Below are positions 25,298 through 41,899 of a DNA stretch of 47,094 bases, piece after piece. The notes below the pieces were generated by a model. That model did not search any database. It was given only the letters and a program-made list of their open reading frames with translations, and was not told the origin of the DNA. How positions within the stretch are numbered: position 1 is the stretch's first letter; each line of letters starts with the position of its first letter. The translations under genes were made by a program, and so were the position numbers. The stretch is from a virus. Where the stretch lies: the IMG/VR virus record IMGVR_UViG_2582581241_000004. One strand, 5' to 3'.

Positions 25298-25480
25298 ATG
25301 TGCACTCATTCATACTCATACACCGTCAACTTCCGCACGATCGAAGGAGAGACGCACTCGAAGGTCTTCGTCGACGACCTCGCCGCTGCGGAATCCTATG
25401 CGACAGAACTGTCGTCGTGCATCGACGTCGATGTCGAATCCATCGAGATCGACGAGCAGGAACTGCTTGGAAATCGCTGA
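25298..25480 (+). CDS. Small acidic hypothetical protein, first gene of the Cas-containing operon
   Basis: AAGGAG RBS, ATG 25298. Confidence 0.55.
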   Translation: MCTHSYSYTVNFRTIEGETHSKVFVDDLAAAESYATELSSCIDVDVESIEIDEQELLGNR

Positions 25481-25493
25481 AACGGACGCCGCC

Positions 25494-26396
25494 ATGATCC
25501 ACCTCGGTCTCACGATCCCCGAAAAGAAGGCCCGCATCGAGGCCTACTGCCGAGAGAACGGCGTCGATCACGTCGTCATGCTCTCGCCGGCCAAGTTCGC
25601 CTTCGAGGTGGACGCGCCGCGCTTCAAGAGCGTCGATTGGCCTGAGACGATCATGTATCGGACGTTCTACCCCTTGCTCAAGGAGATCGACGCCAACACG
25701 CTCGTCGTCGTCAACGAGAGCCTGCGCGATCGCAACCGCAATTGCCTCACCTACAATTGCATGCGGCATTTCCTGTCGCAGACCCGGCGCGTCCTCGTCT
25801 TCCAGTGGCTGCCGCTGATCGAGGACATGAGCGACTTCATGATCCTCTTCGACCTGGCCACCAGTAGCCTCCGAAAGGCGTTCCCTTACGGCACGGATCT
25901 CCTTTCCGAGGTGGAGATCGAGATCGTCGATAGGACGCCCTTCTTCGCCGGCGTCCCTGTCGAGACGGACGCGAAGACCAAGGCCAAATACGCAGCCGAG
26001 CGCGAGAAGATGTTCGCAAACCTCGGCATGGGCGATCCGCACACGATCCCGCGCAATCTCTACCTCATCGGCGGGAAGGCCAAGGCAGCAGCGGCGCCAA
26101 AGACGGCGATCGTCGCGCGCAACTCGCGGCTCAAGATCGACCGGTTGGCGACGTTCCGCCAGGACGCCTATCCGGACGGCCCCTACGCAATGCTGGAGCT
26201 GCCGCACGTCTTCATGGACTTCGCCGATTTCTCGGCGCTGTCGGGGCAGACGGAATTCGACGTGATGCTCGCCGATCTCAAGGTCGACGACTGGTATTTC
26301 CGGCGCTTCAACGCCTGGTCGAAAAGGATCCAAGATGGCTACCGCGATCTACGACAGTTCGGTGGACGTTCTCACGGCCGCGCGCAAGCGGCTTGA
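25494..26396 (+). CDS. Hypothetical protein, possibly an inactivated SF2 helicase-like domain
   Basis: LVVVNES (DExx-like) and F..LP.I.D..DF.IL; no Walker A seen. Confidence 0.5.
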   Translation: MIHLGLTIPEKKARIEAYCRENGVDHVVMLSPAKFAFEVDAPRFKSVDWPETIMYRTFYPLLKEIDANTLVVVNESLRDRNRNCLTYNCMRHFLSQTRRVLVFQWLPLIEDMSDFMILFDLATSSLRKAFPYGTDLLSEVEIEIVDRTPFFAGVPVETDAKTKAKYAAEREKMFANLGMGDPHTIPRNLYLIGGKAKAAAAPKTAIVARNSRLKIDRLATFRQDAYPDGPYAMLELPHVFMDFADFSALSGQTEFDVMLADLKVDDWYFRRFNAWSKRIQDGYRDLRQFGGRSHGRAQAA

Positions 26397-27462
26397 GTTC
26401 GTCTTCGACAATTTCAGGGAGGTCCACGTCTCGATCTCCGGCGGCAAGGATTCGACCGTCCTCGCCCATCTCGCGCTGATCGAGGCGAGGAAGCGCAATC
26501 GCAAGGTCGGCCTGTTCTTCCTCGATGAGGAGGTCGTCTACGAAAGCACGGTCCGCCAGATCGAATATCTGATGGAGCTTTACCCGGAGAACACCAACCG
26601 GCTGTGGCTCCAGATCCCGTTCTGTTTGACCAACGCCGTCTCTCTGACGGAAGGCCAGCTCGTCGCCTGGGAGCCCGGCCGCCACAAGGACTGGATGCGC
26701 CCGAAGAAGGCCTATTCGATCCACGCCGCCCCTTGGGACCGCGAGAAGCAGACCGTCGGCAATAAGTCGAAGGGCTTTGGATTCTACGATGTCATCGAGA
26801 ATTGGGAACGCTGCCATTCCGGCGTCGCCTATCTCGTCGGGATGCGCGCGACGGAACACACGAATCGCTGGCTGGCCGTCGTGCAGCACCCAGTCGATGT
26901 CGGCGGCGAGATGGTCCATTGGGCGACGAAGAACGGCGCGAACGTGAATTTCAACCCGCTCTACGATTGGCAATACTGGGACGTCTGGAAATACATCCAT
27001 CAGGAGAATCTCCGATATTCCCGCGTCTACGACTGGCAGTTCCGCAAGGGCACGCCGTTCCATCAATGCCGTGTCTCGTCGCTGATCCATGAGAAGAGCT
27101 TCCGCTCGCTCTGCGACCTGCCTGAGTTCGAGCCGAAGACCTACGAGCGGCTCTGCGAGCGGATCAAGGGCATCTCGTTCGCGTCCGAGACCGGCAAGGC
27201 GTCGCGCATGTTCGGCGTCTCCAAGCTGCCGAAGAACTACGACTCATGGCGCGGATATCGGGACTTCCTTCTCGCGACGTATCCGGACGCGGAGAAGAAA
27301 GGGATCTTCGTGAAGCGCTTCGCGAAGCATCTCGACAACGACTACGTGGCCCGCCAGCAGTGCCGCCAGCTCGTCCTCAACGACTACGAGAACAATCTTC
27401 CGATCGCGAACAAGGAAGATCCTCGCGTCGCCCTCATCCAATACTATCGGGAGAACCTGTGA
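26335..27462 (+). CDS. ibrA: PAPS reductase (CysH/DndC superfamily), IbrA-like
   Basis: V..AAR.RL...FDNF..V.VSISGGKDS (PP-loop), FFLDEE, VGMRA.E..NR, PLYDW...DVW.YI, Y..VYD, RVS. Confidence 0.8.
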   Translation: MATAIYDSSVDVLTAARKRLEFVFDNFREVHVSISGGKDSTVLAHLALIEARKRNRKVGLFFLDEEVVYESTVRQIEYLMELYPENTNRLWLQIPFCLTNAVSLTEGQLVAWEPGRHKDWMRPKKAYSIHAAPWDREKQTVGNKSKGFGFYDVIENWERCHSGVAYLVGMRATEHTNRWLAVVQHPVDVGGEMVHWATKNGANVNFNPLYDWQYWDVWKYIHQENLRYSRVYDWQFRKGTPFHQCRVSSLIHEKSFRSLCDLPEFEPKTYERLCERIKGISFASETGKASRMFGVSKLPKNYDSWRGYRDFLLATYPDAEKKGIFVKRFAKHLDNDYVARQQCRQLVLNDYENNLPIANKEDPRVALIQYYRENL

Positions 27463-28073
27463 TGAACATCCTTATCGAAAGCGCCGAGCAGTTCAAGACA
27501 ATGCGCGGCAATCTGAAGACTCCGACGATCAAGAGCCGCCACGGGCAGGTTCCCGTCCCGGCGACCGTCACGCTGCTCGTCGCCAGGAGCCTCCTCAAGG
27601 CCAACAACTACAACCCGAACAGCGTCCCAGACGAGAAGATGAAGCTCTTGAAAATGAGCATTCTCGACAACGGATTCTGCTTTCCGGTCGTGACGATCTG
27701 GAGCGACGATGACGAATGCTTCGTCATCGTTGACGGCTTCCATCGATACATGATCACCGGCCCGAAATGGCTGGACATGGAGTTCGTCCCGATCGTCGTC
27801 CTCGATCACGACGTCTCGAAGCGCATGTATGCGACGGTTCAATTCAACAAGGCGCGGGGGACGCATCAGGTCGATCTCGACGCCGACCTGATCCGCGCCC
27901 TGATCGAGCAGGGCAAATCCGAGGACGAGATCTCCGATCACCTCGGCATCGATCTCGACACCATCCACCGCTACAAGCAGCTCACGGGCATCGCGGACCT
28001 CTTCAAGAATTCCGCCTGGTCTCCGAGCTGGAACGCCGTCGAAGGCATTCGCGAGGAGAACATCCATGGTTGA
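27462..28073 (+). CDS. ibrB: ParB/Srx-domain protein, IbrB-like
   Basis: ANNYNPN.V...M.LL..SI..NGF..PVV, IVDGFHR, AT..FN.ARG.H, C-terminal HTH. Confidence 0.8.
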   Translation: MNILIESAEQFKTMRGNLKTPTIKSRHGQVPVPATVTLLVARSLLKANNYNPNSVPDEKMKLLKMSILDNGFCFPVVTIWSDDDECFVIVDGFHRYMITGPKWLDMEFVPIVVLDHDVSKRMYATVQFNKARGTHQVDLDADLIRALIEQGKSEDEISDHLGIDLDTIHRYKQLTGIADLFKNSAWSPSWNAVEGIREENIHG

Positions 28074-28707
28074 GTGGAACTATGGCGGCGCCCATCTGCG
28101 CCACGACATGACCGGCATCATCGAACTGCCGAACGACTCCAAGGTCCAGGTCGCAGATCTGACCAAGGAATTGCCGGAATTCATGATGCTGGCGGACTGC
28201 CTCTTCATCGACCCGCCGTGCAGCAACGGAAACCTGAGGTCTTTTCATACGAAGGCCGACATGGACCTGATGTACGAGTTCAAGGATTTCGAGGAGGCGC
28301 TGTTCCGACGGATCGAGACGATCGGGCCGAGGGACGTCTTCATCGAGGTCTTCAAGTCGAACAAGGCGTCGTTCATCGAGCGGCTGGAGAAGCTCTACGG
28401 CTCGGTCCGCGTCCACGACAGCTTCTACTACAACAAGCCGGCCAACAGATGCTGGATCCTGCAAGCCAGCAGGCGGCCGACATTCCCGGAATTCGACATC
28501 GGCGGAATCGACGAAGCCAAGGCGATCCAGCGCATCTGCTCGGGCTTCGAATTCGACACCATCGGCGACCTCTGCATGGGCAAGGGACTCGTCGGCAAGC
28601 ACGCCTATCTCGCGGGACGGCGGTTCGTCGGAACGGAACTCAATCGCAAGCGCCTCGCCGTCCTGGTCGATTTCATCCGCGAGCAGGAGACGAAGAAGGC
28701 CGCGTGA
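28066..28707 (+). CDS. Small amino-methyltransferase-like protein
   Basis: FIDPPC followed by GDLCMGKG.VG...F.GTELN (SAM-binding motif). Confidence 0.7.
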   Translation: MVEWNYGGAHLRHDMTGIIELPNDSKVQVADLTKELPEFMMLADCLFIDPPCSNGNLRSFHTKADMDLMYEFKDFEEALFRRIETIGPRDVFIEVFKSNKASFIERLEKLYGSVRVHDSFYYNKPANRCWILQASRRPTFPEFDIGGIDEAKAIQRICSGFEFDTIGDLCMGKGLVGKHAYLAGRRFVGTELNRKRLAVLVDFIREQETKKAA

Positions 28708-28742: not shown

Positions 28743-29654
28743 GTGTTCAACAATAGCAGCACACAATTCGCGTGGAAGATCGCGTCCGGAAATACCGTCT
28801 ACGAACCCCCGATTCCCAAGCGCGGGGAGCGATACGCCGAGGGAGACCGCTGCTGGCTGTGCGGCGGTCCGACCGGCGGCCAGGGATGGCGCAAGGAAGA
28901 CGCCATCGCGGCCACGTTCACAAATCATAACTTGGCGGCCGCCCACGGCGCCGTCGCCGTCTGCCAGTCGTGCACCGCCCTGTCGCGGTCCGAGACGTTT
29001 CAGGGCATCGTCAAGGCGCGGAATCTGGACGTCAAAACGTGGACGCAGGCCGGCTGGCATTCGTACAGCCACTTCTTCGCCGAGCCGAATGTCTACGAAT
29101 GCCCGGTCCCGTCCCGCGTCCGCGAGATCCTGCTGTCGCCGCCGGAAGGACGATGGCTGCTCGGAGTGAATCCGAGCGGCAAGAAGCACACGATATTCCG
29201 CGCTCCGATCTGCACGGGCAAGGAGTGGGGCGTGCAATTCGACGAGGCGCGAATCTATTCGACGACCGACGAATTCGCGGCCTGCCTCGCGGATTTCGAA
29301 CGTATGACCGCGCTCGGATTCTCGAAGGACGACGTCTCCAGCGGACGCCAGAGCCACGGTTCGATCCTGCGCGCCGGCGTCTCCGCATGGGCGTCCGCCG
29401 ATGGCGCGATGAAGATCTGGCGCCGCGAGCGTCCCGACCTCCTCGATCTCGTCGCCTATTGCGCCCGCTCGGCGTCCGCCCATGGCGTCGAATTCAAGGC
29501 GCGGGATTCCCCTCCCCCGCCTGCGGTCGCCGATCCGCCGGCGCCGCCTCCGATCGTCGAACCGGCATCCGTCGAACCGGCGAAACCGAAGCGCGGAAGG
29601 AAGGCGGCGAAGCCCGTCAAGCCGACCAACCCCGTCCAACTGAGTCTGTTTTGA
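28743..29654 (+). CDS. csf1: Type IV Cas large subunit Csf1 (Cas8-like)
   Basis: GTG 28743 after GGAG; CWLCG...FTNH......VCQSC Zn motif, LL.PP, KKH; first gene of the csf cluster. Confidence 0.7.
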   Translation: MFNNSSTQFAWKIASGNTVYEPPIPKRGERYAEGDRCWLCGGPTGGQGWRKEDAIAATFTNHNLAAAHGAVAVCQSCTALSRSETFQGIVKARNLDVKTWTQAGWHSYSHFFAEPNVYECPVPSRVREILLSPPEGRWLLGVNPSGKKHTIFRAPICTGKEWGVQFDEARIYSTTDEFAACLADFERMTALGFSKDDVSSGRQSHGSILRAGVSAWASADGAMKIWRRERPDLLDLVAYCARSASAHGVEFKARDSPPPPAVADPPAPPPIVEPASVEPAKPKRGRKAAKPVKPTNPVQLSLF

Positions 29655-29664
29655 GGAGTCTCTC

Positions 29665-30099
29665 TTGCTCTACAATTTCGACACCCACGACGACCGGCTC
29701 GCCGCAGCCGCGCTCGTCCTCTACGCTGCCTACAAATCCCGCGACCGCCGTCGCTTCGCCGTCTCCACGGACATGTGGGACCGGATCGAGCGCTTCGTGA
29801 AGGACGCGGCGAAGAGATCGCGCACGCTTCCGGCTTTCGTGGAAGCTCTGAAGCCGCGCCTGTGCTGCGGATCGATCTCGCCGCGCTGGCTGTCGGCGGA
29901 TCCCTTCGACGCCGCCTGCGAGCGGCGCGGAACCGAATTCCTCTCGCATCTCCTCGAACGCCACGACGGCGCGGCAGTGGTGCGGAAGGCATACGACGAG
30001 ACGGCCTGCGTCGTCCTTCTCGTTCGTGACCGTCTCGAGCGGGAAAAGCCCGTCGAGTCGAACAGCAACGACGCGATCAACGTGAAGGAGTCTGTGTAA
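29665..30099 (+). CDS. cas11: Type IV-B small subunit (Cas11-like)
   Basis: About 144 aa, helical, between csf1 and csf2; GAGGAG RBS; positional call. Confidence 0.55.
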   Translation: MLYNFDTHDDRLAAAALVLYAAYKSRDRRRFAVSTDMWDRIERFVKDAAKRSRTLPAFVEALKPRLCCGSISPRWLSADPFDAACERRGTEFLSHLLERHDGAAVVRKAYDETACVVLLVRDRLEREKPVESNSNDAINVKESV

Positions 30100-31091
30100 T
30101 GGGTAACAAATCGTATCGTCTCGACGGCCTTTTCAGCCTGAAGTCGCCGCTTTCGCACATCAGCGAGACCGTCTCGAACTCGTCCTATCTCGTCCAGGAG
30201 CGCGTCATCCAGAATGACGGCAGCGTCGCCGACGTCTTCGTCTACAGCGGAAACGCCTGGCGCGGCCAGCTTCGCGACCTGATGGCCCGCGATCTCCTCG
30301 ACCGCCTCGGCGACGACAACGGCCCGGCGCGCGTCGGCCTGGACACGTTCTCGCTGCTGTTCTCCGGCGGACGCATCGGCGGCACGCAGACGACGGACAT
30401 CGGGCAGGCGCGTCGCCTGCGTTCCGCGCTGCCGTCGATCGCGCTGCTCGGCGGCGGCGTCGGCAATCAGCTTCTCGCCGGCAAGGCCCGCATCGGCAAC
30501 TGCTATCCGCTCTGCCGTGAAGCGTCGGGCATCCTTCCGGCGTCCTTGCGCGCCGACGCCGCCCTCGTCGAATACGCGGACTGCACGCAAAGCAAGGAGC
30601 ATTCGCGCCGCGACGACAAAAAGATCGAGACCATCAACGGCTATCTCTTGCCGGCGGCCGCGATCGAGGAGACGCCGAAGAAGGGGAAGAAAGCCAAGGC
30701 CGACGACGACGCGCCGGCGACCGACCAGATGAGGATCCGCATGGAGCTCCTCTCGCCGGGCGTCAGACTCCACACCTGGATCTCGATCGAGACGGCGACC
30801 GAGGAGGAGCTCGGCTGTCTCGTCGCCGCCCTGAAGCTCTTCTCCGACGCGCCGCACATCGGCGGGCAGTCCGCGAGAGGCTACGGGCTGGTGGACCTGG
30901 ACTACGCGCTGACCGACCGCACGACCGGCGCCGTCGTCGAGCATTTCGTGACCGTCGCCGACGGCGCCTGCATGCTTTCTCCGGAGGCCTCGGAGGCCCT
31001 GGCGGCCTACGGAAGCCATGTCGGCGCGCTGAAGGAAACCGCCATCGCGCCGAACGGCGGCGTCCTGGCTCTTCTGGAGGGCGCGGCGTGA
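30099..31091 (+). CDS. csf2: Type IV Cas7-family backbone Csf2
   Basis: SPLSH, SGNAWRGQLRD, LFSGG, LR..LP.IALLGG.VGNQ...GK, QM...E, IGG.SARGYG. Confidence 0.85.
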   Translation: MGNKSYRLDGLFSLKSPLSHISETVSNSSYLVQERVIQNDGSVADVFVYSGNAWRGQLRDLMARDLLDRLGDDNGPARVGLDTFSLLFSGGRIGGTQTTDIGQARRLRSALPSIALLGGGVGNQLLAGKARIGNCYPLCREASGILPASLRADAALVEYADCTQSKEHSRRDDKKIETINGYLLPAAAIEETPKKGKKAKADDDAPATDQMRIRMELLSPGVRLHTWISIETATEEELGCLVAALKLFSDAPHIGGQSARGYGLVDLDYALTDRTTGAVVEHFVTVADGACMLSPEASEALAAYGSHVGALKETAIAPNGGVLALLEGAA

Positions 31092-31672
31092 GCGTCTACA
31101 TCGCGAAAATCAACACGCCGCGCGGGCCGATCTCCTCGATCCATTGCGCGCTCTACGCCTGCCTGCCGCCAAGGCCGGAGGGAAGCAAGCGTCCCTTCGT
31201 CTGGCGCGTCGCCGACGGCGGACGTTCGATCGTGTTCGTCTCGTCGGAGATGCCGATCGTCCCGCATGCGACGATCTCGCTCGAGGCGGGGCGGTCCTAC
31301 GAGTTCGCCATCACTTATACGCGCGACAAGCACGTCGGAAAGAAGAAAGCCCGTCACCTCGTCGAGATCAACTCGATGCTCGATCTGCGTGATCGCATCT
31401 CGCATTTCGCCGGCTCCTACGGTGGAAGCGTCGGATTCGTGCGCCACGAACACATGCGGACCCTGCATGTGCGCCGGCAGAACGAGCATCTCGAAATGCC
31501 GATCGTGGACGCCTATGGGCGCGTCGTGGTCGAGGATCCCGTCGCGTTCGAGCAGGTCGTCCTCCAGGGCGGACCGGGCGGCGCCAAGGTCTACGGATGC
31601 GGCATGTGGTGGCTGCCGGAAATCATGGAGCCGGCTCTTTCGCCGGCGAAACTCGAAAGGATCGCCGCATGA
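31088..31672 (+). CDS. cas6: Cas6-like RAMP (Cas6e-type G-rich loop)
   Basis: H..LY, FVWR, G...V.DP..F..V...G.GGAKVYGCGM. Confidence 0.6.
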   Translation: MSVYIAKINTPRGPISSIHCALYACLPPRPEGSKRPFVWRVADGGRSIVFVSSEMPIVPHATISLEAGRSYEFAITYTRDKHVGKKKARHLVEINSMLDLRDRISHFAGSYGGSVGFVRHEHMRTLHVRRQNEHLEMPIVDAYGRVVVEDPVAFEQVVLQGGPGGAKVYGCGMWWLPEIMEPALSPAKLERIAA

Positions 31673-32310
31673 AACCGACTCTCATCCGAGCCGTCCTGGT
31701 CAACGGCTACATCACCAGCAACCCCTGGACGCCGACCATCGACGGCATCGTGGCCTACGCCTCGCAGCTTCGAAAGCACGGCGACGAGTTCTATGTCCAC
31801 CGCGATTCCGAAATGGTCCCGGTGGACGACCTGCCGATCGAGAAGGCCAAGTTCAACGGACGCTGGTGGTATTCGTGTTCGACGCCGACGCCCGTCGATT
31901 CCGTCGGACGCCAGAAGCGAAACTACCACCGCCGCTTCGACGACCAGTATGAGGGCTATCTCGTCTCGGGCGTCGGCAAGGTGCTGACCAAGGCCGGCCC
32001 CTACAAAGCGGCTCGCCTCGCCGACACGCGTACGATCTGCCGAGCCGTCGAGTGGCACGTCGTCGGCGACCGTGACGCGCTGCGGGATCTCCTTGGCGAC
32101 ATCGATCAGATCGGAGCCGCCCGCGCCGTCGGCTTCGGCTCCGTCGTCGAGTGGCAGTTCGAAGAGGGCGACGCCGAAATCGCAAGACGCCGGCGTCCGC
32201 TTCCGCTCGAATACGCGGAGAGCATCGGCATCGCAGGGCGCAGGATGTCGTGGGGCATCGTGCCGCCGTCGCGCCTGCCGGAGTCGATCTGCGAGTGCGT
32301 CATGCCGTGA
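31669..32310 (+). CDS. csf3: Type IV Cas5-family Csf3
   Basis: ATG 31669; IDGIVA, LP, WWYSCS, GPYK, W..VGD...LR.LL..I..IG..R..GFG.V..W, RRPLP. Confidence 0.82.
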   Translation: MKPTLIRAVLVNGYITSNPWTPTIDGIVAYASQLRKHGDEFYVHRDSEMVPVDDLPIEKAKFNGRWWYSCSTPTPVDSVGRQKRNYHRRFDDQYEGYLVSGVGKVLTKAGPYKAARLADTRTICRAVEWHVVGDRDALRDLLGDIDQIGAARAVGFGSVVEWQFEEGDAEIARRRRPLPLEYAESIGIAGRRMSWGIVPPSRLPESICECVMP

Positions 32311-32316
32311 ATCATG

Positions 32317-32356
32317 GCCGTCGCCGGGTTCCGACAGGGATTCGGCGACGGCTTTT
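32317..32356 (+). terminator. Intrinsic terminator closing the Cas operon
   Basis: GCCGTCGCCG...CGGCGACGGC perfect 10-bp outer stem followed by TTTT. Confidence 0.65.
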
Positions 32357-32378
32357 CGATGGCGGAACCGCATCCGCA

Positions 32379-32445
32379 TTAACCATTCGTTTCCCAATCC
32401 GCCTCTCGATTCCACACGCTGCGGTCGTATTAACACATCATTTCC
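32379..32445 (+). promoter_or_regulatory. Two CtrA-like boxes upstream of flagellin
   Basis: TTAACCATTCGTTTCC (32379) and TTAACACATCATTTCC (32430); CtrA consensus is TTAA-N7-TTAA, half-site TTAACCAT. Confidence 0.5.
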
Positions 32446-32495
32446 GCGCCGCTGATAATTGAAACGACACGGGTTTCCATAACGAAGTCGATTTC

Positions 32496-33593
32496 ATGTC
32501 CAGCGTTCTCACGAATTCATCCGCGATCACCGCGCTCCAGAACCTGCGCTCGACGCAGTCCGCCCTGGCGGACACACAGCACCGCGTCGCTACCGGCCTC
32601 AAGGTTTCCACCGCCGCCGACAACCCTTCGACATGGGCCGTCGCGGAAACGATGAAATCCGATCGAGGCGTGGTGTCGACGATCGCGGATTCGCTCGGGG
32701 TGAGTTCGCAGATTGTCGGCGTCGCGATGGCGGGCGTCGAAAGCACGATCTCGGTGATGAACCAGATCAAGAGCGCCATCGCACAAGCGGCACAGCCGGG
32801 AGCCGACAAGGCGAAGATTGCCACGAGCCTTGTCGGCCTGAGCGCGCAACTGCGATCGATTATTGCGTCCGCTTCGTTCAACGGAATAAACCTACTCGAC
32901 GGATCGCAGTCCTCGATCAGCTTCGCGTCCGGATACGTCGATGGGAATGGGTCGGGATCGGAACTGCGATCACTGGGCTTCACGCCTGCGGCGTTAGTAG
33001 AAAATAAAACGGCAATTGCATCCTTAAACGCAAGTAACATCACTGTAAACAATGCATATCAAGCTGGACTGCTATCCTCAAGCAACAAATCGGATATATT
33101 CGATTCTGGTAGTTCTTCGAATCTCGGGTGGATTCCAACCTATGGATTCGAGCCAAACGAGTCGATATTTCCAAATAGCCCTACATATTACGATACATAC
33201 TCCTATGATCTGGCCAATAATGTCATAAACGTAAACTACTATGCCAATTTCGCGGAGATATTTCCGGATTCGTCTGGTGGCTCCGGACTTGGAACCGTCT
33301 TGCTCAACCCTGTCATTGAAGGGAAAAGCCTCGATGTAGCCGATGCGGTTATTTCCCGCCTTACCGACTACGCCTCCACGCTCGGCTCGACAAAGACGAC
33401 CATCGACTCCCAGCGCGGCTTCATGCGGACCCTCGGCGACGCCATGGACCAGGGCATCGGCTCGCTGGTGGACGCCGACCTGAACGCGGAATCCACGCGA
33501 TTGCAGGCATTGCAGACGCAGCAGCAGCTAGGCGTCCAGTCGCTATCTATCGCCAACAGGGACGGCGACATCGTCCTGAAGCTGTTCCAGTGA
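32496..33593 (+). CDS. fliC: Flagellin (alphaproteobacterial type)
   Basis: MSSVLTNSSA..ALQ.L...TGLKV..A.DN, ASFNG.NLL, LVDADLN.ES.RLQALQ.QQQLG.Q.LSIAN. Confidence 0.93.
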   Translation: MSSVLTNSSAITALQNLRSTQSALADTQHRVATGLKVSTAADNPSTWAVAETMKSDRGVVSTIADSLGVSSQIVGVAMAGVESTISVMNQIKSAIAQAAQPGADKAKIATSLVGLSAQLRSIIASASFNGINLLDGSQSSISFASGYVDGNGSGSELRSLGFTPAALVENKTAIASLNASNITVNNAYQAGLLSSSNKSDIFDSGSSSNLGWIPTYGFEPNESIFPNSPTYYDTYSYDLANNVINVNYYANFAEIFPDSSGGSGLGTVLLNPVIEGKSLDVADAVISRLTDYASTLGSTKTTIDSQRGFMRTLGDAMDQGIGSLVDADLNAESTRLQALQTQQQLGVQSLSIANRDGDIVLKLFQ

Positions 33594-33923
33594 TTATGTC
33601 CGTCCGCCTCGGATGGTCTCGGCCATTCTTCCGAACGCCAATTTCCTGATCATCAAATATCGGGGAGCCGCCTCGTCCGATCCCATGCCAACGACGGCCA
33701 CTGCGACGAAAGCGAATCCCGCCGGCAGGAGGATCAACGCGCTCCACAGACGGTCGGCAGGCGTCGGCTCGACCCGATATCCGCGATCGCGAGGCGCTTC
33801 CGGAGCCAGCAACAGCGAACTGACGTAGTTCGGCCAGATCGCCATCGGAACGACCGCAAGGCTGTAACTGACCGCGACGACGACCGAGAACACGATGTCG
33901 TCGATCCATTTGATGACGTTCAT
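33594..33923 (-). CDS. Membrane protein
   Basis: Two hydrophobic helices; convergent with flagellin. Confidence 0.55.
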   Translation of the reverse strand: MNVIKWIDDIVFSVVVAVSYSLAVVPMAIWPNYVSSLLLAPEAPRDRGYRVEPTPADRLWSALILLPAGFAFVAVAVVGMGSDEAAPRYLMIRKLAFGRMAETIRGGRT

Positions 33924-34237
33924 TTTATCTCGTTCTTCAGGCCTTTTATGCGCCGGTCGACTTCGGCTGCGAACGCGTCCTCAATGATCGCCACGATCTC
34001 CTCGGGTGTCCGTCCAGCTCCTGCGGCCGCGATGCAGGCGTCCGTTGCGCGATGGACGACCAACGAACATTCCGATTCGATGTAGATCAGTCTGGACGCC
34101 GCCATGTGCCACCGCATCGCGATCCGGACGAGTTCCTCGATCTCAGGTCTCGGCGCCTTCCGCAGGGCGTGGCGGGCGGCTTCGGTCTTCGAAATATCAC
34201 TATCGCGGGGAATTCCGAACAATTCGTGGTCTTTCAA
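33920..34237 (-). CDS. Hypothetical protein
   Basis: Overlapping stop/start with neighbour. Confidence 0.5.
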   Translation of the reverse strand: MKDHELFGIPRDSDISKTEAARHALRKAPRPEIEELVRIAMRWHMAASRLIYIESECSLVVHRATDACIAAAGAGRTPEEIVAIIEDAFAAEVDRRIKGLKNEIK

Positions 34238-34336
34238 GGGATTTGGTGAAAACAGCGCGCCTCCTTAGCCCCGCGCAAGCCGATCGTCAACGCGGTCCAG
34301 TTTCTGCTTCGTTTCCGACGGTGCGGAAAACGGAAG

Positions 34337-34597
34337 TCAGGCCGTCCCCGCCCGCGCCGCCATGTCCGCCAGGGCGACGCCGACATCCTGGACGAAATCC
34401 GCCACGCCGGGATGGCTCTTCGCGAGCTCCCTCGCCTTGGTGTCCCGCTGCGCCGGCGACAGGCTGGCGTCGCGAAAGATATTTTCCATATCAATGACGA
34501 ACACTGCGGATGGAATCGAGATCCGATGCAACGGCACATGGAATTCCGATGACGGAAACAGCCGCGTCAGCGCGATGATTTCACTGGGTCTGAGCAT
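34337..34597 (-). CDS. Hypothetical protein
   Basis: AAGGAG RBS. Confidence 0.55.
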   Translation of the reverse strand: MLRPSEIIALTRLFPSSEFHVPLHRISIPSAVFVIDMENIFRDASLSPAQRDTKARELAKSHPGVADFVQDVGVALADMAARAGTA

Positions 34598-34940
34598 AGT
34601 CGGTCTCCTTCGATGCCGATGTCTTGGATTTTCGGCGTTCTTCCCGCCGATAGCTTTCGAGCTCCAATTGAAGGCACTCGATCTGCGCCTTCATGGCTTT
34701 CAGCACATCGTCGTGCAGATCCGAAATTCCTTCGCGCAGCGCAGCCATCTTCTCGCGAAGATCGACGCTGGATTCGCGATCGAGGAGCGTTTTGATGACG
34801 TGGATCGCTTGCAGGCACGGAACCGCGACGAAACGCCGGTCAAAACTCGCTTCCGCCGCAATCTCGAGTTCCTCGAGCAGACGCTCGGCCTCGATCGGCG
34901 TCTCGTCGACATGCATGTGAAATTCCGCCAGCCTGTCCAT
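34581..34940 (-). CDS. Hypothetical coiled-coil protein
   Basis: AAGGAG RBS. Confidence 0.55.
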   Translation of the reverse strand: MDRLAEFHMHVDETPIEAERLLEELEIAAEASFDRRFVAVPCLQAIHVIKTLLDRESSVDLREKMAALREGISDLHDDVLKAMKAQIECLQLELESYRREERRKSKTSASKETDYAQTQ

Positions 34941-34952
34941 TGCCGGACTCCT

Positions 34953-35504
34953 TCAGATCACATCCGACCAAAGCAGATCGACGACTTCGTTGAAGTCGAG
35001 CGGCTGGACGATCAACACATTCCGCTCCTGCCAGTCCTTCGCACCGCCGCAGAAATATTCGCCGCTGGCGACGCAATAGGCGATAGGTGTCGATCCGACG
35101 ACCTCGCCGTTTTCCGTCACTTCCTTCCAATATTCGGTGCGGAAACACAGATTGCCGCCGAAGAGGAACAGCCCCGGCCGGCAGGCCTCCAGCGAGACGG
35201 GGCCGCGCGGCGCCTCGTCTTCATCGTCGTCGCCATCGACCGGAGCCGCGTCGACCTCATGAACGACGGTAGCCTGGAAGCCGTTGAAGGCTTGAAAATC
35301 GGACGATCGATCGAACGGGTCGGAATTATGGTCGCTAAAAACCCGCGCGATCTCGATTTCGGCGTTGTCTTCGAGGCCGAGCTGCTTCCGCAATTGACGT
35401 TCGATGATCGCCTCGATGTCCTGCACCGAGACGCGGAACACGGCTTCCCGGCGCGTCTTGGTCGTGGTGATGTCCTTCTTCGTCTCGAATGGAATCTTGC
35501 TCAT
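34953..35504 (-). CDS. Hypothetical protein
   Basis: GAGGGG RBS; acidic linker; PGLF.F...TEY, SGEYF.GG. Confidence 0.6.
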   Translation of the reverse strand: MSKIPFETKKDITTTKTRREAVFRVSVQDIEAIIERQLRKQLGLEDNAEIEIARVFSDHNSDPFDRSSDFQAFNGFQATVVHEVDAAPVDGDDDEDEAPRGPVSLEACRPGLFLFGGNLCFRTEYWKEVTENGEVVGSTPIAYCVASGEYFCGGAKDWQERNVLIVQPLDFNEVVDLLWSDVI

Positions 35505-35510
35505 CGCCCC

Positions 35511-36107
35511 TCACTCCGTTTCGACATCCCAGAATTTCCCGGCGCGCACGATTGCCTCGTCGTTCCCGGCATCGGTATTGTCGTGCGGTTCATCGAGCCA
35601 CGCCGCCAGCGTCCAGCCATCGGCTTCCCACATGAAGACGTCGCACCATCCGCCGTTATCGACGCTGTAGAAAAGACTCCAACCCTTGCGCGGGCGGACT
35701 TTGCCCTTCTCCTTCCGTCCCTCGAAAAGCACTGGATACCAGCCCGATTTCGAAGGCGATTTCGTCGGCGGCTGCTCTTCGCGCGGCCACTGGAAAACCT
35801 TGTCGATCAGGTGATCCCCGATCCTGGACGCCACGTCGCAATGCGCCCGATCGACTCCATATGTCGTCACATGCTCGCCGTGCGGCGCCGGATCGTCGCC
35901 GACGCGCCGGGCGTAGATGATCACTTGGTCGTAGCCGTAGTCGTCGGCGATGCGCTTCGCGGCGGAGATCGGAATTCGCTTCATTTTACGTGGCTGCGAC
36001 ATTGGAGTGTCGTTCCTCTTTGGCTTTTGACGCTTGCGTTCCCGATCGGGAACATTTTCCGGCAAACGAGCGATCTCGGATGAAAGCTTCCCGATCGGGA
36101 ACGTCAT
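35511..36107 (-). CDS. Hypothetical protein (start 36107 or 36002)
   Basis: IPISAAKRIA..YGYDQV.I.AR...EHVTTYG...HC. Confidence 0.6.
   Translation of the reverse strand: MTFPIGKLSSEIARLPENVPDRERKRQKPKRNDTPMSQPRKMKRIPISAAKRIADDYGYDQVIIYARRVGDDPAPHGEHVTTYGVDRAHCDVASRIGDHLIDKVFQWPREEQPPTKSPSKSGWYPVLFEGRKEKGKVRPRKGWSLFYSVDNGGWCDVFMWEADGWTLAAWLDEPHDNTDAGNDEAIVRAGKFWDVETE
36038..36102. repeat. Pair of 16-bp palindromes
   Basis: GTTCCCGATCGGGAAC (36038-36053) and CTTCCCGATCGGGAAC (36087-36102). Confidence 0.7.
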
Positions 36108-36200
36108 GCCGACTCCTTCGACGACCATTGAATCGAGCGATGAATTCAAAGTGATTTGCCGTCAAGAAGCCTTCAGGCCGGGGAGCGATAGCGGCGGTAA

Positions 36201-36248
36201 AAAAATCGCTTTGAATTTTCACGCGCATAATTCACCTGTCGAATCATG
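36201..36248 (+). promoter_or_regulatory. Repeated promoter-like motif, copy B, abutting the tnpB ATG
   Basis: 41/48 identical to 3010-3057, including ATTCACCTGTCGAATCATG. Confidence 0.7.
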
Positions 36249-37439
36249 ATCAAGCGCGGCTTCCGATACCGGCTCGACCCGACCGACGAACAGGAACTCA
36301 TGTTCCGGAAGTTCGCGGGCGTCTGCCGCGCCGTCTACAATGCCGCGCTCCATCAACGCGAAGTATTCTGGCGGCAGCATCTTCGGACGGAAGGAAGGCA
36401 CGTTTCCTACGTCGGACAGGCTGCGGAACTGACCGCGCTTCGCGCCGAGTTCGACTGGATCAGGGAAGTCTCCCAAGCCTGCGAGCAGCAGGCGCTGCGC
36501 GACCTCGACAATGCGTTCCAGCGGTTCTTCGACGGCGTTTCCGGCTATCCGACCCCGCGCCGGAAGGGCAAGAACGACGGTTTCCGCTTCCAAGGACGCA
36601 ATGTCGAAGTCGAGAAGCTCAATCGCAATTGGAGCCGGGTGAAGCTTCCGAAGATCGGATGGGTGCGCTTCCGCGACACACGACCAATGGTCGGGAAGCT
36701 GAAGAACGTCACCGTCTCTCTCGACTCGCTCGGATGGCACGTCTCCTTCGCCCGCGAGATCGAGCATGAAGCTCCGGCGAATATCGCGCCCGCAGTCGGC
36801 ATCGATAGAGGAGTCGCCAATTCCATCGCCATGTCGACCGGCGAAATGGATTCGATCGGCAAGGAGCGGCTCGCCGTCCTCGACCGGCGTCGCAGGAAGC
36901 ACCAGCGCGATCTGTCCCGGCGCAAGCGCGGATCGCAGCGCTACGGCAAGACCCGCAAGCGGGTCGCCGCCGTCGCCGCCAAGGGGGCTCGCGTCCGCGA
37001 GCATTTCAACCATGTCCGGACGACGCGCATCGTGCGGAACTTCGGCACGGTCTGCATCGAGGATCTGAACATCGCGAACATGACGGCGTCCGCGAAGGGC
37101 ACGGTCGAAGAACCGGGAAAGAACGTCGCGCAAAAGGCGGGACTGAACCGCTCCATCCTCGAGCAGGGTTGGGGTCAATTCGAGGAATTCCTCACCTACA
37201 AGCTCGCCGCTTCCGGCGGCGTGCTGGTGAAGGTCGATCCGCGCAACACTTCGCGGAAATGCTCCAACTGTGGCCATATCGACGCTCGCAATCGCGAAAG
37301 CCAAGCATCGTTCCGATGCGTCGAATGCGGACACGAGGCTCATGCCGACGTGAATGCGGCCATCAACATTCTTCAGGCCGGAACGCGGCCTTCGGAAGAG
37401 GCGAAAGCCCCACGCCGAAAATCTCGGAAGGCCGCCTAG
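36246..37439 (+). CDS. tnpB: TnpB RNA-guided nuclease, catalytic D-E-D intact
   Basis: YRLDP...G.CR.VYN; GIDRG (RuvC-I D), IEDL (II E), TS..CS.CG/C..CG Zn finger, ADVNAAINI (III D). Confidence 0.93.
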   Translation: MIKRGFRYRLDPTDEQELMFRKFAGVCRAVYNAALHQREVFWRQHLRTEGRHVSYVGQAAELTALRAEFDWIREVSQACEQQALRDLDNAFQRFFDGVSGYPTPRRKGKNDGFRFQGRNVEVEKLNRNWSRVKLPKIGWVRFRDTRPMVGKLKNVTVSLDSLGWHVSFAREIEHEAPANIAPAVGIDRGVANSIAMSTGEMDSIGKERLAVLDRRRRKHQRDLSRRKRGSQRYGKTRKRVAAVAAKGARVREHFNHVRTTRIVRNFGTVCIEDLNIANMTASAKGTVEEPGKNVAQKAGLNRSILEQGWGQFEEFLTYKLAASGGVLVKVDPRNTSRKCSNCGHIDARNRESQASFRCVECGHEAHADVNAAINILQAGTRPSEEAKAPRRKSRKAA

Positions 37440-37496
37440 GCCTTTCGCATAAATCTCCGAAAGGGGAAGACGTTATCACAACGATTCCTTGGACAA
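37375..37496 (+). ncRNA. Putative omegaRNA (reRNA) overlapping the tnpB 3' end, plus downstream guide
   Basis: GCGGCCTTC (37385)/GAAGGCCGC (37427) pairing; GGC-GAAA-GCC (37400); TCTCC-GAAA-GGGGA (37454); position typical for TnpB RNAs; limits uncertain. Confidence 0.5.
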
Positions 37497-37715
37497 CCGC
37501 TCCACGATCCGCTCCATCGCGGCCGCCGCGCCAGGATTCAACGACAGCATTCCGCGAACAAGGAACTGCCTTTGAGCCGGATCCGCCTTCGACGTTTCGT
37601 TGATCCTCGAAACGAGATCGCCGGCGAGAACGTCATCGCGCCGATCTCCTCGAAGGCCGCCAGACTGCTCGATCACGGCGGCCCACTCGATGGCTTCCAG
37701 CGCGGACAGGGACAT
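37476..37715 (-). CDS. Hypothetical protein
   Basis: TGATG coupling with the upstream gene. Confidence 0.55.
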   Translation of the reverse strand: MSLSALEAIEWAAVIEQSGGLRGDRRDDVLAGDLVSRINETSKADPAQRQFLVRGMLSLNPGAAAAMERIVERLSKESL

Positions 37716-37963
37716 CAGGACTTTCCTCTGTCCTGCGCCAGCTTCATCTCCTCAAGACGCTGCAACTCCATTTCAAAGACCCGGCGAAGGAGTTCATTTT
37801 CCTGGAGTGTTTTTCCGCCGCCTTCCTTGTCCACAAGCCTGCCACGATCCGCAAGCAGGAAGGCCAGCAGCTTCTCCTGATACTCGATGGCATCCTTGCT
37901 CGGACGACGACCTTTGACCGGAGAACGAGCGGCGGCACGCCGCATCTTTCTTTCGAGAGACAT
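37715..37963 (-). CDS. Hypothetical protein
   Basis: Downstream of promoter-like motif copy D. Confidence 0.55.
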   Translation of the reverse strand: MSLERKMRRAAARSPVKGRRPSKDAIEYQEKLLAFLLADRGRLVDKEGGGKTLQENELLRRVFEMELQRLEEMKLAQDRGKS

Positions 37964-38010
37964 TATTGAATTCCCCGTGCTTGTCGTCGGCAGCGTGTTC
38001 GCCGACCTTC

Positions 38011-38046
38011 AAATCAATGGGTGAATCCAAGCTCGGTAAAAATCAA
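38011..38046 (-). promoter_or_regulatory. Divergent copy D of the promoter-like motif
   Basis: Minus strand TTGATTTTTACCGAGCTTGGATTCACCCATTGATTT; one base longer than copies A-C. Confidence 0.45.
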
Positions 38047-38086
38047 TGGTGCGAAAGATCTTTCTGAAACGCATCGAATCCTAGGA

Positions 38087-38133
38087 TTATTCACTATACG
38101 AAATATCGGGCGTTTATTTCGTATAGCGAATAA
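38087..38133. repeat. AT-rich inverted repeat, 19-bp arms and 9-nt spacer
   Basis: TTATTCACTATACGAAATA-TCGGGCGTT-TATTTCGTATAGCGAATAA (18/19 complementary). Confidence 0.75.
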
Positions 38134-38157
38134 AATCCCGATACGAAGACAAGGCCG

Positions 38158-40662
38158 TCATCGACGGCGCCGCTTCTGCGGCTTTTCATATTGATTCCGC
38201 TTTACGCCCATAGCCGCGTCCATTTCGGCCATTTCCGCAGGAGACGCAGTGCCTCCCCACCACGCCAGAAACTTCAGTGCGCGCGCGTCGCCTTCCGGAT
38301 CTGGACAATTTGCCGTCGGAATCTTCGAAGCCGTTTTTGGAAGACGATCATTCGTGCCGTCCGATGAATTTGAATTTGGATTCTCGATCGCAGGAACGTC
38401 CTTCGAGTCCTGTGCCGTCACATGGACAATCCCAATTTCATCATCACGAATTGCCGTCTCCGAGGATGTTTCGACAGATGTGGCGATGGAAATCGTTGAA
38501 GGCGGAATCGACGGTTCAATTCGTGAAGACGATTGGCCGAATCTTCCAAAACGTGAAGGACGACTCTTGTGAATGACGGAGCAATTCGAAGCGGATTCCT
38601 CGGACGAAGAAATATCGATCGATGCAGGAATTATCCCGTCTCCATTCTCGCCGTCATCCACACCAATGATCGTCTCCGGAACGATGGATGTCGTCGATGA
38701 CGGAATCGACTTTGCAGGGGACGACGACCGGTCAATCCTTCTTCCGAACCGTCGCGGATTCCCTTTCACGTCGATGATCTTTGAGACATTCGCATCGACC
38801 TCGCCGAGAGATTCCCCACCGACGGTCTTCGAAATAGCCACGCTTTCCACGGTCTTTTCACCGTCGTTCTCGACCGAGATTCCAGCCGTGATTGACGTCT
38901 TCACCAATCCGCCCCGCAGACGCGCCAATTGACGTCCCAAATCGGACTTGCGATGTGCGAAATCCGCAGTGTCATTCACGGCCTGAATCTCCAATTCATC
39001 AACGCAGTCGTCTTCCATCCACCACGACGGAATATCCACACCATCCTCATTCGAGTTATCGTCCCAAGCCGGCAGGGACGGAATGACGATGTCGGATGCG
39101 ACGACTCTTTCGATGCTCTGATGTTCGATCTTCGTTTCGTCTTCCATCTTCCCCCTGCGAATTCCTTCTCCATTCCGGGGATCTATAGACCTTCGTTTAT
39201 CGCGAGAGGCGCAATCGTCTTTTGTTTGTTGGGGAGTCGACCTCTCGTTCATGTATTTATAAGCGGTCGGCTTGCTGACTCTGGCCTCGCGAGCGATGGA
39301 TGCAGCCGAGACTTCCTTCCCGGCTTCTCGAAGTCTCGAGATCGCGGCAAGAACGGCGTTGCGGGCGGTCGCCGCTCTGCATTCTGCGGAATATTGGGCT
39401 CCGACAGCCTGACGTTCCGCGACCGTCTTCAATCCCTTGACGCGATCCCGGCACGCTCCCCTGTCGCGCCCGTTCGCGGAGCAGCGATCGGGATCCCATC
39501 GCCCGGCGGCATAGAGCGCCACGCGACGGATCATTTTCATGAGACGCTTTTGCTCGGACTTCTTTTGAAACATATGTCCGATTTCGGCGGTGCATTTCGC
39601 CTCGAGGATGTCCGCCAGCGCTTCCGTGTCGCCGATCGCGTCGAGATATTCCGGATCGCAGGCGTGGTGCATCATTCTCAGGGAGTCGAAGGCGATGCGC
39701 TGCGCCGCACAGAAGGCCGCGTTAGAGTCGTTTTTGTCCAATCCCGAACCCAGCGCCGCAGCGTCCCTGGCGAGATCCCCATACCGACGTCCGGTGTCGA
39801 CGCACTCGGCCCATTCCGTCAGATCGGGAAACGCCGTCCCGTTCCAGATTTCCCTGGTCCAGTGTGAACTGAGCGGGCTCTTGCCCTTTCCTTCATTTGC
39901 GATCGCGCTGATGTCCGCGCCGAGGTGCAGCAGCGCCGCGGTGCATCCGCGCACTACGCCGTCGAACAGCGCCATGATGCGCTTGTTGCAGCGCTCGTCG
40001 TCGGGGTCGTACCAGACCTGCGAGCCGTACGGTAAAAGCCACCAAAGATGCGGACGCCGCAGGGTTCCGTCATGCTCGACATGACCGACCGGTATGTGCG
40101 GCAGACACGGCAGATCGCCTCGATCGACGACCTTCTGAAGCTCGTAGCGCAGGTAGGCCATCGACGGGAAATCCATGTCGAGATCGACCCGCCAGCCGTG
40201 TCTCATCAGCCGCGTCAGTTCGATGACCGGCATGTCGAGAGCCAGCAATTTGCTGTCTGCCAGCGGCAGGAATCCCTTTTCATAGCCGGCATGCAAAGAA
40301 TTCGCGATGCGCTTTTCGATGAGTTCGTTGGTCTCGTCGCCGAAGCGTTCATGCGTCCGACCGTGGTAGACGCGGGGGGTCGCCGCGATGAAACGCCTGA
40401 GGACGTGCTCTTCCTCCGACGCCAGTCCGACCTCATGAAACGGTTCGATGAAATAGGCGCCGACCATCCCGCCCGGCCATACGAAGCCGGTTTCGAGACG
40501 CTGCTTTACGAGATCCATTCTCGACTGATGACGCTCGATCGACGCCTTCGCGAGCTCGGAGACTTCCGCCGTGGTGATCTTGCGCTTTCGACGCCTCAGC
40601 TCGCTTCGAACGCCGCGCATGGCGGCATAGTCGGAGTCGAATTTGTCGATGCTGACGTCCAT
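38158..40662 (-). CDS. ColE2-type (AEP superfamily) replicase with HTH and long low-complexity tail
   Basis: RVDLDMD, PH...GH...PHLWWLL, L.GAD, KSPLS.HW, then SAASIAREARVSKPTAYKY HTH; acidic/Ser-rich C-terminal third. Confidence 0.65.
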   Translation of the reverse strand: MDVSIDKFDSDYAAMRGVRSELRRRKRKITTAEVSELAKASIERHQSRMDLVKQRLETGFVWPGGMVGAYFIEPFHEVGLASEEEHVLRRFIAATPRVYHGRTHERFGDETNELIEKRIANSLHAGYEKGFLPLADSKLLALDMPVIELTRLMRHGWRVDLDMDFPSMAYLRYELQKVVDRGDLPCLPHIPVGHVEHDGTLRRPHLWWLLPYGSQVWYDPDDERCNKRIMALFDGVVRGCTAALLHLGADISAIANEGKGKSPLSSHWTREIWNGTAFPDLTEWAECVDTGRRYGDLARDAAALGSGLDKNDSNAAFCAAQRIAFDSLRMMHHACDPEYLDAIGDTEALADILEAKCTAEIGHMFQKKSEQKRLMKMIRRVALYAAGRWDPDRCSANGRDRGACRDRVKGLKTVAERQAVGAQYSAECRAATARNAVLAAISRLREAGKEVSAASIAREARVSKPTAYKYMNERSTPQQTKDDCASRDKRRSIDPRNGEGIRRGKMEDETKIEHQSIERVVASDIVIPSLPAWDDNSNEDGVDIPSWWMEDDCVDELEIQAVNDTADFAHRKSDLGRQLARLRGGLVKTSITAGISVENDGEKTVESVAISKTVGGESLGEVDANVSKIIDVKGNPRRFGRRIDRSSSPAKSIPSSTTSIVPETIIGVDDGENGDGIIPASIDISSSEESASNCSVIHKSRPSRFGRFGQSSSRIEPSIPPSTISIATSVETSSETAIRDDEIGIVHVTAQDSKDVPAIENPNSNSSDGTNDRLPKTASKIPTANCPDPEGDARALKFLAWWGGTASPAEMAEMDAAMGVKRNQYEKPQKRRRR

Positions 40663-40671
40663 CAGGAACTC

Positions 40672-40714
40672 GAAACAAAACGAGCGCCGAGAGGCCCCAC
40701 TCCTCTCGGCGCTC
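40672..40714 (-). terminator. Terminator-like hairpin in the replicase leader
   Basis: Perfect 13-bp stem GAGCGCCGAGAGG/CCTCTCGGCGCTC followed on the minus strand by GTTTTGTTTC, about 20 nt before the ATG. Confidence 0.6.
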
Positions 40715-41099
40715 TGAACCGTGCGCGACTTGCGCCTGCGCGACGGATTCTAGAATTCCGTTTCGATGCACGTGGGGCATGCACCACCCGAAGATGGCGC
40801 CGCCTCCCGCATGCCGCAATAGGTATTCAATGGAGATATCAATGTGTTAAGCGCAGCGTCGCTTTCGGACACCCGCGTAAAACAGACTCTTTCGCGCCTT
40901 CAGATGCAACTACGCATCGAGAGTCGAAAAATCACTGTCGCGTCGTCATCGACACATGGAGGCTATCCTGGACATGTTTGCGAGGCATCGAAAATGATGA
41001 CGTCGCGAGACGGCTGGAAAACTTTTTGAAAATATTTTTTCGAGGGCCGTCGAAAAATGGGGTCGAAGCGCCTTTTTGGACGAGATCGACCCCGAGGCA

Positions 41100-41446
41100 T
41101 CACGGACACCGCAGGAAATCGTGCTCGGCGCCGCCGTTCACGCGCAGCGATATCCAGTCGCGGTCTCCGTCGTTGTAGCTGCGAGCCGTCACAGTTGCGT
41201 TCGAGAGACTCGCCCCGAACGCCCGGTCGCATATGCCTTTCCATGTCACCGTCTCGCCGGAGCGACTCACCGAATTGAACCGGCATTTCAATTCCGGTGA
41301 AGAGATCTCCATCCGCCCGATGGACATCGCCGCGAATTCGCAGGCTTCCCCGTCGGAACCCCATTTGCCGACGATGGATTTCGCGGCCTCCGTTGGAGTG
41401 GACACGACGGCCAGCGCAGCGACCCCTCATTTAATCGTTTTTTCCA
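41100..41446 (-). pseudogene. Paralogue of 41902-42294 with an in-frame TGA in its leader (or a shorter GTG-started gene)
   Basis: LEKTIK*GVAALAVVSTPTEAAKSIVGKWGSDGEAC...; mature part closely matches the paralogue. Confidence 0.5.
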
Positions 41447-41569
41447 AGGCCGTAATCCTGGTGTCGGTGTATGAAAGGATATCGCACGAAGTGTCTTGAT
41501 TTATGCCGTATTGCGATTCCGCCCGTCTCCCACTAAAATCAACTGACTCCATTATGTCGGTGGCGGGAA

Positions 41570-41899
41570 ATGGGAATCGGTGAAACGATATTCTGGTATG
41601 CGGTCGGCGGAATTGTCGTTCTTGCAATCGCATGCTCGATAATCAACTCCATTTACGAATGGTATCAGCGCGACGTCAATAAAAAGTGTCCTGCATGCGG
41701 GGAATCCGGCGTCTTCGAGCAGGTCTCGGACGTCCTCAAAAACAAGCGCAGAACCAGTAGGAGGATTTTGCGAATGGAGGGGGCGGACAGGTATTACGAA
41801 AACGAATACACTACGACGGAATATTGGGAATCGACATACAGATGCTCAGCATGTGGGCATGAGGCCGTCTATGAGCACACGGATTCGTATCGGTCCTGA
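41570..41899 (+). CDS. Membrane-anchored zinc-ribbon protein
   Basis: N-terminal TM helix; CPACG...CSACGH. Confidence 0.6.
   Translation: MGIGETIFWYAVGGIVVLAIACSIINSIYEWYQRDVNKKCPACGESGVFEQVSDVLKNKRRTSRRILRMEGADRYYENEYTTTEYWESTYRCSACGHEAVYEHTDSYRS

Follow-up and report, generated by a model that had tools for sequence, protein, structure and literature searches.

The flagellin gene described here is probably a cargo gene (moron) that a temperate Methylosinus phage carries as a transcription unit of its own, and its product would co-assemble with the host flagellins FlaA and FlaB with no silencer involved. An earlier note on this DNA proposed flagellar remodelling by an alphaproteobacterial prophage, perhaps with the nuclease-free Csf complex, encoded directly upstream, as the silencer of host flagellin. 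The first part of this proposal is supported. The flagellin is prophage-borne, it comes from a lineage distinct from that of the host flagellins and it is under purifying selection; a lysogenic change of the filament is therefore plausible. The second part, a role of Csf as silencer, is not.

Prophage and host

The window, i.e. the whole 47 094-nucleotide stretch that was analysed, corresponds to C9:1005257-1052350 of a 5.1-Mb genome. The prophage is 121 kb in length (C9:931524-1052546), and a 56-bp direct repeat in tRNA-His marks its ends. Genes for terminase, portal, sheath, tape measure, baseplate, integrase and endolysin are found in or upstream of the window. The element is a myovirus-like prophage, and the flagellin gene is within its boundaries. 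DnaK and DnaJ encoded by the genome share 99% and 98% identity with their counterparts in Methylosinus sp. LW4, and therefore the host appears to be Methylosinus, a methane-eating bacterium. The host flagellin genes, flaA and flaB, encode 303 aa each and lie in tandem in the flagellar cluster, which is on a different contig (C8) from the prophage (C9). Flagellin matches in the whole genome are the window gene, a copy at C9:892945 and the two genes on C8, with no others.

The prophage also has repeat sequences. A 48-nt promoter-like repeat precedes phage gene blocks at window positions 3010-3057, 9575-9622 and 36201-36248. Two 300-nt direct repeats, 71% alike, are found in a low-GC stretch (window 41100-41399 and 41902-42201), and only one of them is matched in the prophage remnant described below.

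The flagellin gene and protein

The gene displays an open frame of 365 aa with no internal stop codon (Table 1). The earlier note described it as a full-length flagellin situated behind csf3, and this is borne out: the gap is 185 bp, and the N- and C-terminal helical core domains of a bacterial flagellin are both present in the open frame. Pfam Flagellin_N covers residues 4-138 (E 7.6e-23) and Flagellin_C covers residues 279-364 (E 6.2e-13), both above cut-off. The top NCBIfam model is the rhizobial PRK12687, at 188 bits, which is below its cut-off of 311. The fold predicted from the single sequence is poor (pLDDT 41). In an alignment-based model built with 36 sequences, the D0/D1 helices have pLDDT values of 70-96, and the best PDB match of the flagellin model is the Sinorhizobium meliloti filament 7sn9 (E 6e-15).

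The middle of the protein, a probable surface domain, is approximately 60 aa longer than that of the host flagellins. Residues 196-250 show pLDDT below 50 even with the alignment-based model. The middle of the phage flagellins has 13-14 aromatic residues, compared with one in host FlaB. It is also AT-rich, with a GC3 of 0.44 versus 0.76 and 0.85 in the termini of the window copy. Among 1.84 billion proteins, a profile of the middle matches only the phage copies and a clade of chromosomal orphan flagellins, which are discussed below. The final residues depart from the host consensus and read NRDGD, as opposed to NQNSQ in the host.

Table 1. Positions of the flagellin gene, its upstream elements and neighbouring genes in the window
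Feature	Position	Strand	Basis or remark
Four-gene block, recurrent csf partner	25398..28707	+	family models; recurrence
IbrA-type PAPS reductase, 375 aa	26335-27462	+	family models
ParB-like gene	27459-28073	+	family models
Putative methyltransferase-like ORF	28066-28707	+	no family match
csf1 (start approximate)	28743..29654	+	TIGR03114, E 3e-9, below cut-off
cas11-like small subunit (start uncertain)	29665..30099	+	position; homologues in 108/113 csf2 loci
csf2 (Cas7-like), 330 aa	30099..31091	+	TIGR03115, E 1e-18, below cut-off
Cas6e-like gene, conserved N-terminal His and Gly-rich loop	31088..31672	+	PF08798, above cut-off
csf3 (Cas5-like), 213 aa	31669..32310	+	TIGR03116, E 2e-15, below cut-off
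17-bp hairpin with short T run closing csf operon, probable terminator	32316..32353	+	not called by terminator scan
Upstream box 1, ATTAAC-N6-TTTC, putative CtrA-like half site	32378..32393	+	motif search
Upstream box 2	32429..32444	+	66 nt before ATG; 67 nt in second copy
Prophage flagellin with conserved N- and C-terminal filament core	32496..33593	+	Pfam, NCBIfam, model, PDB match
Variable middle of flagellin, about residues 161-277, probable surface domain	32976..33326	+	GC3, identity, pLDDT
TnpB, intact RuvC triad D187/E272/D368 and zinc finger, mobile insert	36246..37439	+	

A second copy in a prophage remnant

The same genome has a remnant of a related prophage at C9:890626-908415. It is cut at the left by an insertion sequence and its other end is at tRNA-Thr. 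The remnant is 80-91% identical, in blocks, to window positions 30453-46150. It retains the end of csf2 (partial), a csf3 that is 96% identical to that of the window, and a 333-aa flagellin. The order of csf3 followed by flagellin is kept in both known members of the phage lineage. The cas6 gene is replaced in the remnant by an unrelated 100-aa open reading frame, and the gap from csf3 to flagellin is occupied by a convergent bPH_2-domain gene and has a different hairpin. By eye, the 100-aa frame resembles one located after csf2 in locus L063.

The window and remnant flagellins are 83-86% identical at the termini but only 30% identical in the middle. The remnant flagellin has a 13-aa insert near residue 98. 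The middle of the remnant copy is also AT-rich (GC3 0.41), and GC3 ranges from 0.72 to 0.85 in the termini of the two copies. Values of dN/dS for the two termini are 0.34 and 0.35, each based on only 27-28 changes; those of csf3 and csf2 are 0.10 and 0.18. Based on the diverged middle, the conserved termini, and the convergent gene and cas6 replacement in the remnant, the flagellin has a conserved core and a variable predicted surface, and the csf3 junction is not conserved.

A third member of the phage lineage was not found in viral contigs, in the family (300 genomes), in the order (400 genomes) or by a sheath protein search. The search for csf2 in the 300 family genomes gave one weak match (E 3e-4), and csf3 was not found in the 400 genomes of the order outside the present genome. 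The closest relative of the sheath protein is at only 42-46%, with no close phage relative found. Searches of viral contigs with single sequences of csf2, the flagellin and an 834-aa neighbour found nothing, and alignments were needed. Within the phage lineage, co-occurrence of csf and flagellin rests on two related copies.

Origin of the phage flagellin

The nearest relatives are flagellins of 352-353 aa, which some Methylosinus genomes have as solitary genes between dnaK and dnaJ. Their distribution is patchy: of 13 other genomes in the genus, two have them, and the present genome has nothing at that site. The 353-aa orphans are located at L006:7460-8521, L009:10001-11062, L070:8687-9748 and L071:8497-9558. 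The orphan genes often adjoin other small inserted genes, for example a toxin-antitoxin pair. No prior description of these flagellins was found.

A tree of the conserved termini unites the orphans with the two phage copies in one clade, with support of 100/99. A grouping of the phage flagellins with host flaA/flaB was rejected (p-AU 7e-5). The tree is midpoint-rooted and so does not fix the direction of transfer. By this phylogeny the phage flagellins are not copies of flaA/flaB but belong to a small clade of accessory flagellins. The orphans, e.g. that of LW4, resemble the phage copies in forming a sister clade with an alignable middle, in lacking the host-type leader and in being outside the flagellar cluster. 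They differ in that they are chromosomal and the middle is host-like in GC3 (0.82).

Upstream region and regulation

Two boxes are located upstream of the flagellin gene (Table 1). Box 2 overlaps the -35 region of a sigma70-like site at 32430-32459; a scan detected three such sites where 3.0 are expected, and a sigma70-like match alone proves nothing. The genome has four occurrences of the pattern ATTAAC-N6-TTT(C/T), two before each phage flagellin, although the pattern was drawn from those same sites and is therefore post hoc. TTAA is rare in the genome (0.23 per kb). The paired TTAAC boxes are kept in both copies while the surrounding DNA differs.

The CtrA consensus is TTAA-N7-TTAA, and CtrA sites in, as well as CtrA binding to, alphaproteobacterial phage DNA have been reported (PMC9437464). 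The full site is not present upstream of the flagellin, where there are only two TTAA-N7-TTTC half matches. The boxes are putative CtrA half sites; alternatively, they may be plain -35 elements or sites for a phage regulator. The upstream motif differs from the 48-nt promoter-like repeat, which was not reported there.

A 28-nt leader core precedes flaA, flaB and the flagellar-cluster flagellins fetched from the genus, but is absent before both phage copies and the dnaK-dnaJ orphans. The core is part of a longer leader and is found at C8:248341 and 249581 (L002:2342 and 3582). Neither the window nor the leader of the host flagellins matches an Rfam family. The host genome encodes FlbT. FlbT is described as acting on flagellin 5' UTRs in Caulobacter and as required for flagellin in Brucella (cited in PMC8781033). 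The leader is a candidate FlbT-binding RNA element. With its own paired boxes and without the leader of the genus, the phage flagellin looks like a unit with its own promoter. The earlier note also placed a terminator between the csf and flagellin units. The 17-bp hairpin with a short T run that closes the csf operon is a probable terminator, but the terminator scan did not call it.

Proposed role and alternative explanations

In a lysogen, the flagellin would be transcribed from its own promoter, probably when CtrA, a cell-cycle regulator of the host, turns on the motility genes. The host flagellar apparatus would export the protein, which would then co-polymerize with FlaA and FlaB in the manner of Rhizobiales secondary flagellins. 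The extra middle domain would cover the short host subunits and alter the filament surface. Perhaps the altered surface hinders flagellum-binding phages, or alters swimming or adhesion. Host flagellins would not be silenced by an RNA guide. Expression and filament incorporation are predicted here from sequence. A variable middle would suit a role in blocking flagellum-binding phages. For a free-living methanotroph, evasion of animal immunity would be an unlikely benefit.

Several observations favour the cargo proposal: the location in a prophage with att sites; a second copy that shares its termini and not its middle; membership in the orphan clade and not in that of flaA/flaB; a dN/dS of about 0.35; and paired boxes retained in diverged DNA. 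The convergent bPH_2 gene of the remnant also argues for an independent unit, and mixed flagellin filaments are normal in Rhizobiales (10.1101/335265). On the other hand, each box corresponds to just one half of the CtrA consensus, both known members of the lineage keep csf3 upstream of the flagellin, and the NRDGD terminus could impair assembly.

The phage flagellin could instead become the main filament protein without any guide, either by escaping FlbT/FlaF control exerted through the leader or with the help of a phage protein that lowers host flagellin. Absence of the leader before the phage copies and the orphans, the FlbT gene of the host and the reported action of FlbT on flagellin leaders are consistent with such a takeover. 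However, leader-FlbT binding is itself presumed, the leader has no Rfam match, the flagellin of a Labrenzia prophage retains a host-type leader, and no candidate phage repressor was identified. A takeover is thus considered unlikely.

It is improbable that the protein is a filament poison or a shed decoy, that is, one that caps or weakens filaments or, instead of staying in the filament as a stable subunit, is released to absorb flagellum-binding phages. The fast-changing middle, the acidic, non-consensus residues close to the C-terminus of both copies, and a dN/dS in the termini that is above those of csf3 and csf2 would agree with this. The dN/dS values come from few changes, however, both core domains are complete with a modelled fold as in filament structures, and chromosomal relatives of the same build persist in several Methylosinus genomes.

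Lastly, the gene might be a neutral passenger that was acquired from a former host and is no longer used. The low-GC, unameliorated middle and the presence of one copy in a prophage cut by an insertion sequence could be read in this way. Yet both copies are open over the full length, dN/dS is below 1, and the upstream boxes are at the same distance in diverged DNA, which makes a disused gene quite improbable.

The csf operon

The operon consists, in order, of an unknown open reading frame, an IbrA-type PAPS reductase gene, a ParB-like gene, a putative methyltransferase-like frame, csf1, the cas11-like gene, csf2, the cas6e-like gene and csf3. It resembles type IV-B loci (PMC8175902; 10.1101/780106) in having csf1, the cas11-like gene, csf2 and csf3 in one operon on a mobile element, with the reservation that the TIGR matches are below curated cut-offs. 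The cas11-like gene has no match to a family model in Pfam or NCBIfam. No cas1, cas2 or dinG match is found among the operon genes. The operon has no CRISPR array of its own, and the sole array in the genome is that of the host type I-C system. The latter system is at C9:1805272-1818552, with 75 repeats and the array at C9:1.805-1.810 Mb.

The operon differs from type IV-B loci in that it has a Cas6e-like gene, which is termed a rare exception (10.1101/780106). Genes of this type are present in 34 of 113 related csf2 loci; in the type IV-B clade they keep the His and Gly loop and mostly have no array nearby. A further difference concerns cysH, a near-invariant partner of type IV-B, the function of which is unknown (PMC8175902; 10.1101/780106). 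The short cysH-type gene is missing from the prophage, though it is kept in loci with the four-gene block, and the PAPS-reductase-family gene of the operon is the long, upstream IbrA-type one. The four-gene block adjoins csf genes in loci L063 and L172, as does most of the block in L173, all without flagellin. It also recurs in unrelated elements, including some without csf (L170, L171).

A provirus with csf, cas6e and cysH (L041), whose csf2 is recorded from Hyphomicrobium sulfonivorans, shows two type I-E-like repeat hairpins around an approximately 29-nt spacer (L041:13440-13530). The pair is a candidate mini-array for a type IV-B system.

The csf operon as partner or silencer

Co-occurrence of csf and flagellin genes in related elements, which the earlier note had suggested as a check on its proposal, was not observed in related csf2 loci. 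A total of 113 loci around csf2 relatives, mostly 30-65% identical, were drawn from viral, genome and metagenome collections; none is a close relative of the present phage. All 113 have csf without flagellin, an outcome that the earlier note had named as refuting its proposal, by a profile that does detect the flagellins of two other viral sequences (L163 and L164, see below). Sequence extends at least 1.5 kb past csf3 in 63 of the loci (53 clusters at 90%) and at least 5 kb in 37. A cysH-like gene is present in 58 loci and directly follows csf3 in 51 of the 63. These counts, together with a flagellin-carrying Labrenzia provirus that has no csf2 match, favour the cargo proposal. The caveat raised in the earlier note, that adjacency of csf and flagellin may be incidental, proves the better reading in view of the 113 loci and the broken junction of the remnant. 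The type IV-B operon is most likely a separate module that is tied to cysH/IbrA-type genes and shares an accessory region with the flagellin.

A guide was also sought. No array, repeat pair or type I-E-like hairpin was found in the prophage. Matches between the non-coding DNA around the operon and the flaA/flaB regions do not exceed 11 nt, and random prophage pieces give 9-15 nt; a guide that is short or bulged would be missed by this comparison. A 15-nt match between the csf3 tail (32232) and the flaA promoter region was attributed to chance (E 0.27) and is broken in the remnant. None of the 74 host type I-C spacers matches either prophage or the flagellin genes and loci over its length.

A nuclease-free Csf complex that received a guide RNA from Cas6e could in principle silence flaA/flaB and let the phage flagellin take over. 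The gene order shared by window and remnant, the retained His and Gly loop, the possible guides in provirus L041, the loss of the short cysH-type gene usual after csf3 and the lack of a known type IV-B function (PMC8175902) speak for it, but given csf2 loci devoid of flagellin, the fruitless search for arrays, guides and spacers, and a remnant with no cas6 and with a convergent gene in the csf3-flagellin gap, such silencing is very improbable. There is an equally slim chance that an array-less type IV-B system, having lost the short CysH, was co-opted with a Cas6e-cut guide that repeat searches would not recognize. Were this true, type IV-B would gain its first function, and flagellar remodelling a second RNA-guided route. 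As it stands, the analysis takes away a function of type IV-B that is attractive but lacks support.

Comparison with known systems

Prophage flagellin has been described only in Enterobacteriaceae and always with an RNA-guided silencer; the FliCP flagellin there is called the first known (PMC13418256). No alphaproteobacterial prophage flagellin was found in the literature, and no isolated phage record matched the present flagellin. Two other viral sequences carry rhizobial-type flagellins. L163 is a 63.5-kb provirus rated 100% complete. Its 306-aa flagellin (10001-10921), which is the part recorded from Labrenzia sp. C1B10, lies among phage replication genes and is unrelated to the Methylosinus phage copies. 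A tree in which the phage flagellins of Methylosinus and Labrenzia form one clade was only weakly rejected (p-AU 0.04, with a long branch). L164 is a viral contig fragment with the end of a flagellin gene (3-212) directly before scaffold and capsid genes. The two Methylosinus copies, the Labrenzia one and the fragment suggest that phages captured flagellin more than once and that they can use it without a known silencer. In a single genome, two flagellins that have the core in common but not the middle represent a natural test pair for the role of the outer domain.

The FliCP-TldR prophages, e.g. FR-phi (10.1101/2023.11.30.569447; PMC13418256), are likewise temperate phages with a full-length flagellin unlike that of the host. 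The present case differs in the alphaproteobacterial host with its two short flagellins, the rhizobial-type phage flagellin and the myovirus-like genes (FR-phi is a siphovirus). In addition, neither a nuclease-dead TnpB nor a guide directed at host flagellin was found. TldRs are defined by loss of the RuvC triad (10.1101/2023.11.30.569447), and the TnpB of the window was rejected as a TldR on reading this copy, where triad and zinc finger are intact. Another copy of this TnpB, 90% identical, is present at a different site of the prophage, and the remnant has no TnpB at the position of the window gene. Three TnpB genes are found in the prophage, that of the window and those at C9:938926-940221 and C9:969492-970667, two of them being 90% identical in DNA. 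With neither a broken triad in the window TnpB nor a guide found, two defining features of that system, the phage flagellin is by its sequence a prophage cargo like FliCP but not a FliCP-TldR member. Measured gains of the Enterobacter FliCP are motility and immune evasion (PMC13418256). Superinfection exclusion was ruled out in that system, with no flagellotropic phage among 1144 screened (PMC13418256); thus receptor masking is as yet without precedent.

The secondary flagellins of Agrobacterium and Sinorhizobium provide another parallel (10.1101/335265). These are extra paralogues that join the main flagellin in one filament, as is proposed for the phage protein. They are chromosomal host genes, however, whereas the Methylosinus flagellin is phage cargo with a variable middle.
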